Shown: positions 14,887 to 17,827 of the stretch, one piece after another | How the letters are laid out: the number at the start of each line of letters is the position of its first letter | Numbering within the stretch: position 1 is the first letter of the stretch | NCBI GenBank assembly: GCA_963665115.1 | Contig: OY762007.1 | Span: 1,568,001 to 1,632,000 of the forward strand | Origin: an uncultured Rivularia sp. | GTDB taxonomy: Bacteria; Cyanobacteriota; Cyanobacteriia; Cyanobacteriales; Nostocaceae | DNA length: 64,000 nucleotides | Reading direction: 5' to 3' | Program-made: the position numbers and the translations under genes | Notes under the pieces: model-generated | Database searches by the model: none | What the model saw: the letters and a program-made list of their open reading frames with translations, nothing else | What the model was told of the DNA's origin: nothing

Positions 14887-16056
14887 CTAATGAAATGGGC
14901 ATTTATCAACGCTTTTTATACTGTTCCAAGGGTCAGGTTGAGGAAATAAATTAGGTTTCAAAATCGTATTTTCAAATTCTGTATGAAACACTTTGGTTGC
15001 CGAACCTGAAAGTGGTGGGACAATTACACCCCAATCAGCAGGAACTGTTCGACCTTGATTTGCTTCGCGATCGCAATGTTTCATAAATTGTTTGGAGGCT
15101 GTATGATGGTCAACTATTGAAACACCATTTATGGCAAATGAATGTAGTACTGCTGCGTTCAATTCAATTAATGCCTTGTCTTTCCATAAAGATAATTTTG
15201 AACGGGTATTTAATCCCAATTTCTCCCCAATTACTGGCAGCAAGTTGTAGCGGTAATCATCGCCAAAATTGCGGGAAGCTATTTCTGTACTCATATACCA
15301 ACCGTTGAATGGTGAGGCTGAATATGAGATTCCACCTATTTCTAAACGGTGATTTGAAACAGAAGGTAAAGCGTGCCATTTCAAACCTAATTCTGCAAAC
15401 CAAGGTAATTCAGGATGGGTAATAGGAACTTCTAAAACTATTTCTTTGGGAATATTAAACAGCTGCGGATTTTCTCCTGGCATTTGAATAATTAATGGCA
15501 AAATATCGAAGCGGGTTCCAATTCCATTCCACCCCAATTTCTGACATATTTTCGTTAATTCAATTTGTGCGGGGTCGCCAATAATTGTACCATCTGGAAG
15601 TGAATAACCTGCATAGCGAATTAATAAAGGATTCCAAATTCTTATACCAGGTTCTCCAGGTTTATCGGGAGCGAAAATGGAAATCATTGATAATATTTTG
15701 CCATTATTTGTTGCTAACTTAATATGCTCTACAATTGCCTCAAATATTTCTGAGGCTGTAGATAAATGCCTTAAATCGCGAACAATTAATGTGTTCCAGA
15801 AAATTCTTCCAATACAGCGCGTGCTGTTTCGCCAAGCTAGTTGTGCCCCATAATTAATTTCTTTTGGGGTTTGCCAGTATGTTCCCGTTTTTTGAACTTC
15901 GTCACATATTTCGGCGAGCCGCTTTTCTAATTTTACTATTGGTATATTTCGTTCCGTATAGAATAATTTAAGGAATTCCGTTGCTTCGGAAACAATCAGG
16001 TTTTCATTCAACTTTAATTTTTCGATTATTTCCATTTGTTGACTGGATAAACGCAT
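14887..16056 (-). CDS. nos: Bacterial nitric oxide synthase (oxygenase domain only)
   Basis: Heme-thiolate motif AWRNSTRCIGRIFW, RIWNPLLIRYAGY, PFNGWYMSTEI, IVDHHTAS, ADWGVIVPPLSGS. Confidence 0.95.
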   Translation of the reverse strand: MRLSSQQMEIIEKLKLNENLIVSEATEFLKLFYTERNIPIVKLEKRLAEICDEVQKTGTYWQTPKEINYGAQLAWRNSTRCIGRIFWNTLIVRDLRHLSTASEIFEAIVEHIKLATNNGKILSMISIFAPDKPGEPGIRIWNPLLIRYAGYSLPDGTIIGDPAQIELTKICQKLGWNGIGTRFDILPLIIQMPGENPQLFNIPKEIVLEVPITHPELPWFAELGLKWHALPSVSNHRLEIGGISYSASPFNGWYMSTEIASRNFGDDYRYNLLPVIGEKLGLNTRSKLSLWKDKALIELNAAVLHSFAINGVSIVDHHTASKQFMKHCDREANQGRTVPADWGVIVPPLSGSATKVFHTEFENTILKPNLFPQPDPWNSIKSVDKCPFH

Positions 16057-16263
16057 AACTTTATCTGTAAATTATCTATTTTCTGAAGGTTATAAGAAAA
16101 GTATTTAGTAATTCAAAATAGAACTTAGAGCTTCACAGGTAATTATCGAGACCTTTGGGTCTAAAACCCCACCTACAAGAAGGCATACTAGTAATTGGTT
16201 AGGGTAAAATACCACCACCAATTACCTCTCCCTCTCTCCCTCACTCCCTCACTCTCTCCCTCT

Positions 16264-17827
16264 TTATTTCCGCTCTTCAGTATCACTTGATGTATTCAAA
16301 GCAGCGATTTTAGATCTATCTATTACTTGAGAATTGTTCAAATCATCTTCTAAGTTTGTACCAAACGAATTACGAGGTTCTTTGAGAAAAAACGCGCACA
16401 AACTTGCACAAATCAATGCAGTTATACCCATCGTATTGAATAAAGCTCGGGTATTACTGAAGTTGTAAACAGTCAAAAAAACTACACCACCGACATTTCC
16501 ATAAGCACCTACGTTACCCGCAATTTGTCCGGTAATTTCTTTTTTTATCAAAGGAACTATGCTAAACGTGGCACCAGCAGCAGCTTGAACGAAGTAAGCA
16601 CAAAATATAGTTGCCATCGTAGCACCTACAACTGTCCAATTTGTATCTATTGCTGCCATCAGTAGATAACCGATGCCAATTCCCACCGTCATCCCTGTCA
16701 TTACCCACTTACGGCTTCCCAATCTATCGGAAATTAATCCACCACTTGGACGAGAAATTAAGTTTAAAAATGGAAAGCTAGCTGCAACAAAACCAGCTTG
16801 AACAATATTTAAATCAAAGGTTTGGGCAAAAAAACTTGGTAATACAGAAATTACCGCAATTTGCGAACCAAAGTTAGTCACATAGGTCAAACTTAGCAAA
16901 GCAATCTGTCGAAACTCGTAGCGTTCTGAGGGTGCAAAGGTTTGTTGACTTTTTAAAAAATCTTCTGCACCAGGATTCAAAGAAACCAATCAATTCTCTA
17001 TTTACTTGCCAAGATTTGTATAGCTGAAATAAATATAATGCAGTTACTGCGATCCAAATAAAAATAACTTGGCTTTCATTCAGAAATTGAATAGAATCTG
17101 AATGCAAAGGAAGTGATAGCAATCCTAAAGACAACAATAATCCCAAATCCATCAGAGTCATTGCAAAAAAACTTCTGCGACTCGTAACTTGCATTGCTCC
17201 GCTACGTTGGGGACGGCGAAATTCTTTTCCGGGTGGTGTGTCTTGAACGTTAAACCAATAGAAAACACCGTAAACCGCACAAACGATACTAATAATACAT
17301 ATTGAAAATCGCCAGTTAACGCTTCCTACTGTGAATGTAGCTGTTGCGACTCCTAACAATGGTAATAACAATTGGGATGCAGCAGCACCGAAATTACCCC
17401 AACCACCATATATTCCTTGAGCAATACCAATTTCTGATGGTGGAAACCATTCCGCTATCATTCGCACTCCAACAACAAAACCCGCACCCATCACACCCAT
17501 CGTCAGACTGCTGTAAACAAGCTGGTCAAAATTAGTTGCAAATCCAGTCATGAAACAGGGAATCATTGCAAATATCAGCACTCCAGCAAAAGTAATTCGC
17601 GCTCCCCAACGGTCTAAAATTATGCCGATTATTATTCTTGCTGGTATCGTCAACGCTAGATTGCAAATCGCAAGAGTTTTCATTTGTTCCGATGTCAAGC
17701 CCAAATCATTTTGAATGGCGATCGCAAATGGTGCAAAGCTAAACCAAACTAAAAATGACAAAAAAAAGGCTATCCAAGTTAAATGTAAAATTTTATTCTT
17801 TAATGAGAGTGAGAATATGCTAGACAT
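16264..17827 (-). CDS. nrtP: NarK/NrtP-family nitrate/nitrite MFS transporter; frameshift near 16985
   Basis: LHLTWIAFFLSFLVWF, TIPARII, EWFPPSEIGIAQGIYGGWGNFG, RPSGGLISDR, GQIAGNVGAYGNVG; two overlapping ORFs. Confidence 0.85.

Follow-up and report, generated by a model that had tools for sequence, protein, structure and literature searches.

A conserved module of two genes, an oxygenase-only nitric oxide synthase (NOS) gene and a gene for a nitrate/nitrite transporter, is described here from the genome of an uncultured Rivularia sp. The stretch analysed, called the window, is 64,000 nucleotides long and corresponds to C1:1568001-1632000 of an 8.69-Mb single-contig genome. The module is real and conserved within one lineage of cyanobacterial NOSs, in which the transporter partner was convergently replaced and the pterin site of the enzyme is altered. 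Tentatively, with a chance a little short of even, we read it as a system in which nitric oxide (NO) would be made from arginine and the resulting nitrite or nitrate would be exported or exchanged by the co-inherited transporter. The module consists of the following parts.

14887 to 16056, minus strand: nos, oxygenase-only NOS of 389 aa (PF02898, E=3.5e-161; alignment to 2flq and 3e7s)
16057 to 16263, minus strand: spacer of 207 bp with a short repeated element near 16219-16269 and one NtcA-like site with one mismatch
16264 to 17827, minus strand: nrtP2, NOS-linked NNP-family nitrate/nitrite permease paralog, 520 aa without one extra base (TIGR00886, NarK alignment, residue census and tree)
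17828 to 18434, minus strand: upstream region of nrtP2, with neither a perfect nor a one-mismatch NtcA box (pattern scan)

A NOS lineage with a linked transporter

The PF02898 domain spans residues 19-378 of the nos product (model positions 3-362 of 362) as its sole domain in the profile scan, and the domain scan found no globin or reductase domain fused to it in the 389 residues. The first-pass annotation, which was made from the DNA letters, had called this NOS oxygenase-only, and this description holds; the altered pterin site had been overlooked. The single-domain enzyme is thus not of the SyNOS type with fused globin and reductase. In the genome search, nos was the sole NOS match, and Globin gave a single match, at C1:8.62 Mb. 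The nearest named NOS relatives are from Rivularia metagenome-assembled genomes (MAGs), with 91-95% identity. The alignment to 2flq and eNOS 3e7s showed that haem Cys81, the arginine-binding residues Glu258, Trp253 and Tyr254, and the pterin-site residues Arg262 and Trp342 are present. The ratio of nonsynonymous to synonymous substitution rates (dN/dS) of nos was 0.14-0.17 against three relatives. Conversion of arginine and O2, with a reductant, to NO and citrulline is tentatively predicted as the reaction. An AlphaFold model of the NOS had a mean predicted local distance difference test score of 56 and was not used.

The survey detected NOS in three overlapping genome samples: 38 of 401 genomes for the order, 82 of 351 for the family and 14 of 401 for the phylum. 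Flanks were fetched for the short (oxygenase-only) loci of order and family, for 22 long ones, and for 80 genome and 80 metagenome loci. A NOS tree of 97 rows was built after exclusion of duplicates, fragments shorter than 300 aa and most non-cyanobacterial rows. The window NOS falls in a clade of 40 rows supported by a Shimodaira-Hasegawa-like approximate likelihood ratio test (SH-aLRT) value of 99. Both IQ-TREE trees of this study (NOS and NrtP) are quick searches with SH-aLRT support only, and their deepest subclade branching differs. Two globin-linked rows, one identical twin and one duplicate of the window were set aside, which left 36 clade rows.

A transporter lies within 1.2 kb of nos in 30 of these 36 loci, in several families. 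It is of the NrtP type in 21 (fragments only in L126, L129, L201 and L226), of the HPP type in six and of the NarU/NarK type in three, the NarK partners scoring highest with the NarU model. Among the flanks of other NOS loci, whose lengths vary, no nitrate/nitrite transporter was found (0/169, including 35 other cyanobacterial rows). The pairing noted in the first-pass annotation is thus conserved and exceeds what chance would give, and its NrtP-type form stands; the alternative HPP and NarU/NarK partners and an adjacent GAF gene had escaped notice. In several relatives (L017, L018, L114, L131 and L177), nos and the transporter are 0-40 bp apart. Two close relatives, L112 and L113, carry a globin gene beside nos instead of a transporter. 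The stand-alone GAF gene adjoins the module in 9 of the 36 loci (e.g. L019:7446-7937, L018:5253-5741 and L134:6277-6795), and its product is related to the GAF domains of plant NLP and bHLH-MYC_N proteins. The genome of the window has no stand-alone copy, with similar domains found only inside long open reading frames (ORFs). A role of this protein as an NreA-type nitrate sensor was considered and not retained; no NreA match was obtained in PDB, and the clusters returned by Atlas were all GAF clusters. The genome of the window yielded neither H-NOX nor HPP, and none of 16 plasmid records belongs to the clade by identity (all below 60%).

Several other arrangements were seen around NOS genes. 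Two nrtP2-nos pairs with equal scores occur on one chromosome of G251 (L106 and L107), one of them amid transposase-like ORFs, as after recent duplication or mobility. L123:6006-7373 (G417) holds a decayed narK-GAF-nos unit in which NarK and NOS are fragmentary. A Peptidase_S51 gene (cyanophycinase family) converges on nos only in the Mastigocoleus-group loci L016:9560-10678, L126 and L226, where it may be connected with the supply of arginine. Directly 3' of nos, three Rivularia-group genomes (L014:9270-9725, L015:1497-1937 and L120:9233-9658) have an unannotated ORF of about 150 aa with weak Pfam hints of DurN and TerB; in three long NOSs, homologues of it are found some 3 kb upstream of the oxygenase domain. 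A second clade of oxygenase-only cyanobacterial NOSs (L229, L232, L233, L234, L237 and L241; e.g. L233:4924-11084) sits in a biosynthetic-looking cluster. Its order, taken from L229, L233 and L241, is NAD-dependent epimerase/reductase, nos, epimerase, fatty-acid desaturase, class III aminotransferase and polyketide cyclase, and the NO might be used there in making natural products. Long cyanobacterial NOSs, of about 1100-1220 aa, were also seen (L124:5537-9097 and the related L125, L246-L250 and L262-L264). In L124, N-terminal NAD(P)-binding, EF-hand, BFD-like 2Fe-2S and FAD/NAD reductase domains precede the oxygenase, an architecture distinct from SyNOS.

The transporter and its upstream region

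A NarK/NNP-family gene (TIGR00886) lies upstream of nos on the same strand at a distance of 207 bp, as had been noted at first. The family assignment and the spacing hold; what had been missed is a frameshift of the assembly that splits the gene into two overlapping ORFs, 16874-17827 and 16264-16989, by one extra base.

16983 to 16985: short homopolymer with the one extra base that splits nrtP2 (contigs of sequencing runs)

Eight of 13 listed sequencing runs (X1 to X8) were compared, of which X1-X3 may be those of the source study. The extra base is absent from contigs of seven of the eight (X2-X8), and in X1 the two forms occur at similar depth. A contig of X2 spans 14705-18500 and differs from the assembly only by this base. 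One-base homopolymer gains of this kind recur in related MAGs, and the assimilatory nirA and nrtP are likewise split in the same assembly. The extra base is most likely a sequencing or assembly error and nrtP2 most likely intact, although a minority real allele may carry it, given the two forms in X1 and the same extra base in L021. A pseudogene or a programmed frameshift was ruled out by the contigs without the base, by a dN/dS of about 0.14 (0.13-0.14), by the recurrent homopolymer gains and by the split assimilatory genes. With the NNP model, the intact orthologue in L014 scored 337 bits against a cut-off of 311.7, and the two halves in the window scored 195.5 and 146.6. Further split or overlapping ORFs were seen at 21802-22789, 25670-26827, 32346-37038 and 44396-48656 of the window and at L013:8191-11502. 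The split genes include those of a GDSL lipase, GT2, TPR-CHAT and SNF2 as well as the assimilatory nirA and nrtP, which is consistent with an indel-prone assembly.

A second nrtP, 45-55% identical, is flanked by nirA and narB at C1:3.072-3.078 Mb, 1.49 Mb away. Because this separate nirA-nrtP-narB operon holds another nrtP, the transporter of the window is an extra paralog, named nrtP2 here, and not the only assimilatory nrtP of the genome. It lacks the nirA/narB linkage of an assimilatory NrtP; as the first-pass annotation had stated, no nitrate or nitrite reductase is nearby, none being present among the 44 ORFs of the window that were scanned. In the NrtP tree, 16 NOS-linked NrtPs and the orphan L206 are split from 21 NrtPs of narB/nirA operons by a branch with an SH-aLRT of 99, with paralog pairs of the same genome included. 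When a distant NarK outgroup was used, the assimilatory group was monophyletic (0.98) and rooted monophyly of NrtP2 was not recovered (support 0.61). The claim is therefore limited to the unrooted split. For 16 pairs, the tree of NOS and that of NrtP2 agreed with a Mantel r of 0.94 and shared 10 of 13 splits. A third NrtP-like paralog, 49% identical to NrtP2, occurs in three Rivularia-genus genomes that lack nos (G572:C1:2120885, G019:C1:7917711 and G010:C81:15911).

The residues of the NarK anion site, as named in passages of PMC4432589, were used for comparison. In the NarK alignment, NrtP2 keeps R64, F117, N145, Y315, F319, G320 and R359, so that the two arginines, the tyrosine, the phenylalanine and the glycine of the anion site are present together with the nitrate signature. 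On the other hand, two positions separate it from the assimilatory NrtPs.

16861 to 16863, minus strand: Gln322 in TM7, which is Glu in 21/21 assimilatory NrtPs and Gln in 17/17 of the NrtP2 group
17507 to 17509, minus strand: Ser107, which is Arg in 21/21 assimilatory NrtPs and Ser in 17/17 of the NrtP2 group

N227D and R240P are further fixed differences, and NrtP2 has a loop insertion. The lost Arg107 and Glu322 may have formed a proton-coupling pair, and NrtP2 may be uncoupled from protons.

NtcA recognises the motif GTA-N8-TAC. The first-pass annotation had found no perfect box upstream by eye, and none is present over the whole 607 bp upstream of nrtP2. Perfect boxes were absent from all 24 upstream segments of modules (110-607 bp) and present in 10 of 11 nirA controls (about 410 bp). 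In the same genome, the assimilatory nrtP has a perfect box 35 bp upstream and nirA has two one-mismatch sites upstream. The module therefore does not carry the NtcA box of an assimilatory NrtP. The FNR, CRP and NsrR patterns gave no match upstream of the module; a promoter scan gave fewer matches than in shuffled sequence; and no terminator-like match was found in the 207-bp spacer. The two genes may form an operon with a single transcript, for which the tight spacing in relatives is only indirect evidence.

The altered pterin site and the role of the module

The haem and arginine sites, and Glu258, Trp253, Tyr254, Arg262 and Trp342 in particular, are invariant in all 36 clade rows. Two other positions of the window NOS were informative in the alignment.

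15025 to 15027, minus strand: Val344, in place of the pterin-stacking Trp (eNOS W447, iNOS W457)
15358 to 15360, minus strand: Val233, an eNOS-like Val at the NO gate where Geobacillus-type NOS has Ile

The window NOS reads DWGVIVPP where eNOS reads DWAWIVPP, so that its pterin site is incomplete, with R262 and W342 kept. The iNOS numbering behind these comparisons is presumed, except for W457, R193, V346, R375 and I456. The stacking Trp is present in 56 of 57 rows outside the clade and replaced in 30 of the 36 rows within it (Arg in 21, Lys in two, Val in six and Ala in one). One subclade has Arg or Lys in 23/23 rows and the other has Val or Ala in 7/13, and the haem-proximal Arg80 is changed to Asn in 16 of the Arg/Lys rows. 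Val occupies the gate position in 33 of 36 clade rows versus 15 of 57 others. Passages of PMC3795282 report that W447A abolishes the NO output of eNOS and that mutation of this Trp abolishes or lowers NO formation and uncouples mammalian NOS. Because the stacking Trp is replaced and its mutation impairs the mammalian enzymes, the NOSs of the clade may use another cofactor, run slowly or do different chemistry. These natural Trp-to-Arg and Trp-to-Val variants offer a test of the cofactor requirement in NOS catalysis.

In the favoured reading, the oxygenase-only NOS would make NO from arginine with electrons drawn from a stand-alone cellular reductase. Such an electron supply is known for Gram-positive NOS. 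The NO would be oxidised to nitrite or nitrate inside the oxygenic cell, and the linked transporter would export or exchange this product. If NrtP2 is uncoupled from protons, the inside-negative membrane potential would push the anion out. Signalling and stress protection in mats and biofilms are candidate purposes of the NO. The same slot beside nos is filled by three transporter groups that share nitrate/nitrite as substrate, which supports the handling of nitrite or nitrate. Among 27 Rivularia-genus genomes, four carry nrtP2, in each case beside nos, and this, like the agreement of the NOS and NrtP2 trees, also speaks for the reading. Further agreement comes from the independence of NtcA, the charges lost in NrtP2, the partners of NarU type, the globin beside nos in L112 and L113, which is another way of NO disposal, and the genome G485. 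This genome, 99% complete, keeps nos and NarK, but its narB is reduced to a 51-aa remnant and a nirA orthologue is missing; therefore assimilation is not required there. According to passages of the cited papers, bacterial members of the NNP family import nitrate and expel nitrite, which is cytotoxic (PMC4432589), S. aureus excretes nitrite owing to NOS activity and NOS-derived nitrite is physiologically active (PMC5539425), and HPP is a nitrite transporter (PMC4137279). The proposal of the first-pass annotation that the transporter exports or recycles NO-derived nitrite or nitrate is compatible with the data, which favour export to some degree.

Several points weigh against this reading. Replacement of the Trp in 30 rows, together with the effect of W447A on eNOS, makes normal turnover of arginine to NO uncertain. 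Sequence does not reveal which way the transporter moves its substrate, and NrtP itself is a permease for uptake. Nitrite uptake was the activity by which the plant HPP protein was characterised, as a part of PMC4137279 describes. The pairing of R107 with E322 and its role in proton coupling are conjectural, and the fixed Asp227 gained in NrtP2 could replace the lost Glu. Six of the 36 rows have no adjacent transporter, some of them on short contigs, and the FNT family (NirC/FocA) was not searched; four loci have only NrtP fragments; and two of six nos-bearing Rivularia-genus genomes lack nrtP2. The counts overstate independence because the clade rows are related; the pattern perhaps goes back to a single ancestral linkage with NrtP plus two or three replacements, and not to 30 events. 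The agreement of the NOS and NrtP2 trees is partly due to host descent. The evidence from G485 comes from one draft genome.

Among the rival explanations, the first reverses the flow. The NOS lineage would have shed its pterin dependence and its haem would act as an NO-forming nitrite reductase at low oxygen, fed by its own nitrite importer of NrtP, NarK or HPP origin and possibly tuned by the NLP-like GAF protein as a sensor. The replacement of the stacking Trp by two residue types in two subclades, the joint change of Arg80 to Asn in 16 rows, the eNOS-like Val gate, the GAF gene in 9 of 36 rows and the lack of nirA in G485 all agree with it. Passages of PMC12117333 list eNOS among haemoproteins with hypoxic nitrite reductase activity, and the nitrite uptake of the HPP protein also points this way. 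However, the arginine-binding and pterin-site residues are invariant in 36/36 rows, the Trp is kept in six rows including Mastigocoleus with an intact nrtP2, and the GAF protein has no NreA match in PDB and no stand-alone counterpart in the genome of the window. We consider this explanation unlikely. If true, it would give mat- and biofilm-forming cyanobacteria an oxygen-independent source of NO.

In the second, nitrogen would be salvaged: NO would be oxidised outside the cell, and NrtP2 would re-import nitrite or nitrate for NarB and NirA to recover the nitrogen of arginine. Orthologues of narB and nirA are present in 19 and 22 of the 23 genomes tested, respectively, NrtP2 belongs to the same family as the uptake permease, and re-entry of NOS-derived nitrate was proposed for SyNOS in passages of PMC6104048. 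However, the canonical NrtP could already re-import these ions, the module lacks a perfect NtcA box, and G485 has the module without the reductases. Moreover, arginine dihydrolase mobilises arginine nitrogen in cyanobacteria, according to a part of PMC7554344. Salvage is likewise judged unlikely.

The third is that the two genes move as a unit on mobile DNA or are under common regulation, the transporter not handling the substrate or product of NOS. The patchy distribution, the loss or decay of the transporter in several rows, the two copies in G251 with one among transposase-like ORFs, and an orphan nrtP2 without nos in G347 would agree with this. It is nevertheless judged quite unlikely, since the same slot is filled by three transporter groups of one substrate class, both genes are under purifying selection, and the two genes are only 0-40 bp apart in several relatives.

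The neighbourhood had been described at first as containing kinases and as resembling an extracellular contractile injection system (eCIS), and this is correct.

10616 to 14570, outside the module: eCIS_core (10616-11521), Pvc16 (11736-12380) and a Ser/Thr kinase (12945-14570)

Ser/Thr kinases flank the nos-nrtP2 pair, eCIS_core and Pvc16 are 2.5-4 kb away, and three eCIS tube genes are located beyond the left edge of the window, at a distance of 15-28 kb (G000:C1:1540453-1552482). A role of NO in signalling or cell death for this locus, as first suggested, is very unlikely and largely refuted by synteny: eCIS_core, Pvc16 and kinases do remain close to nos in two further Rivularia genomes despite rearrangement, and CHAT-domain genes adjoin the module in three loci, but those two, both Rivularia, are the only ones of 35 other clade loci with eCIS_core/Pvc16 near nos, and in the genome of the window there are about 60 matches to the kinase queries and 19 to the CHAT query, so that the context seems incidental. 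The part of the eCIS cluster within the window (688-2688 and 10616-12380) comprises an AAA ATPase, a partial AAA duplicate near 3296-3520, eCIS_core and Pvc16.

Comparison with known systems

No description of a NOS paired with a nitrate/nitrite transporter was found in titles and the starts of abstracts, among which subscription literature is thinly covered, so absence from print is not established. Related literature includes PMC12922734, PMC9137985 and bioRxiv 2021.03.07.434255, each cited from passages. The purpose of bacterial NOS and the fate of its NO are unsettled, and the repeated pairing with a transporter ties this lineage to transmembrane nitrite flux. In Calothrix, Mastigocoleus and Rivularia, the question of NOS and nitrite flux is reduced to two genes.

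The Gram-positive NOSs (Geobacillus/Bacillus, 2flq and 1m7v; S. aureus) have the same single oxygenase domain, haem Cys and arginine-binding Glu at about 50% identity. The window NOS differs from them by Val instead of Ile at the NO gate and by the replaced stacking Trp. Unlike the window clade, non-cyanobacterial NOS loci had no NrtP-, NarK- or HPP-like gene in the flanks fetched. Oxygenase-only cyanobacterial NOSs were already reported as cluster I, including Mastigocoleus testarum (Correa-Aragunde et al. 2018, PMC6104048), and the passages of that account that were consulted mention no linked transporter. Here such NOSs are divided into the transporter-linked clade and the clade with the biosynthetic-looking cluster. 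SyNOS of Synechococcus PCC 7335 is a globin-NOS-reductase fusion whose products include nitrate, and the order has many long NOSs of about that size. In contrast, the window NOS has no fused globin or reductase, and the long NOSs belong to other clades with no transporter nearby.

On the transporter side, the equivalents of R89, F147, Y263, F267, G268 and R305 of the E. coli exchangers NarK and NarU (4jr9, 4u4t and 4iu8) are conserved in NrtP2, and some clade members have a NarU-like gene beside nos. The protein of the window is nevertheless NrtP-like and only distantly related to them (E about 2e-7), and no respiratory nitrate reductase is linked to it here. The closest known counterpart is the NrtP of the nirA-nrtP-narB operon, with the same family and anion site and 45-60% identity, from which NrtP2 is distinguished by R107S, E322Q, N227D, R240P, the loop insertion and the lack of a perfect NtcA box. 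The NrtP/NrtP2 pair within one genome is therefore a natural comparison for coupling and direction in NNP transporters.

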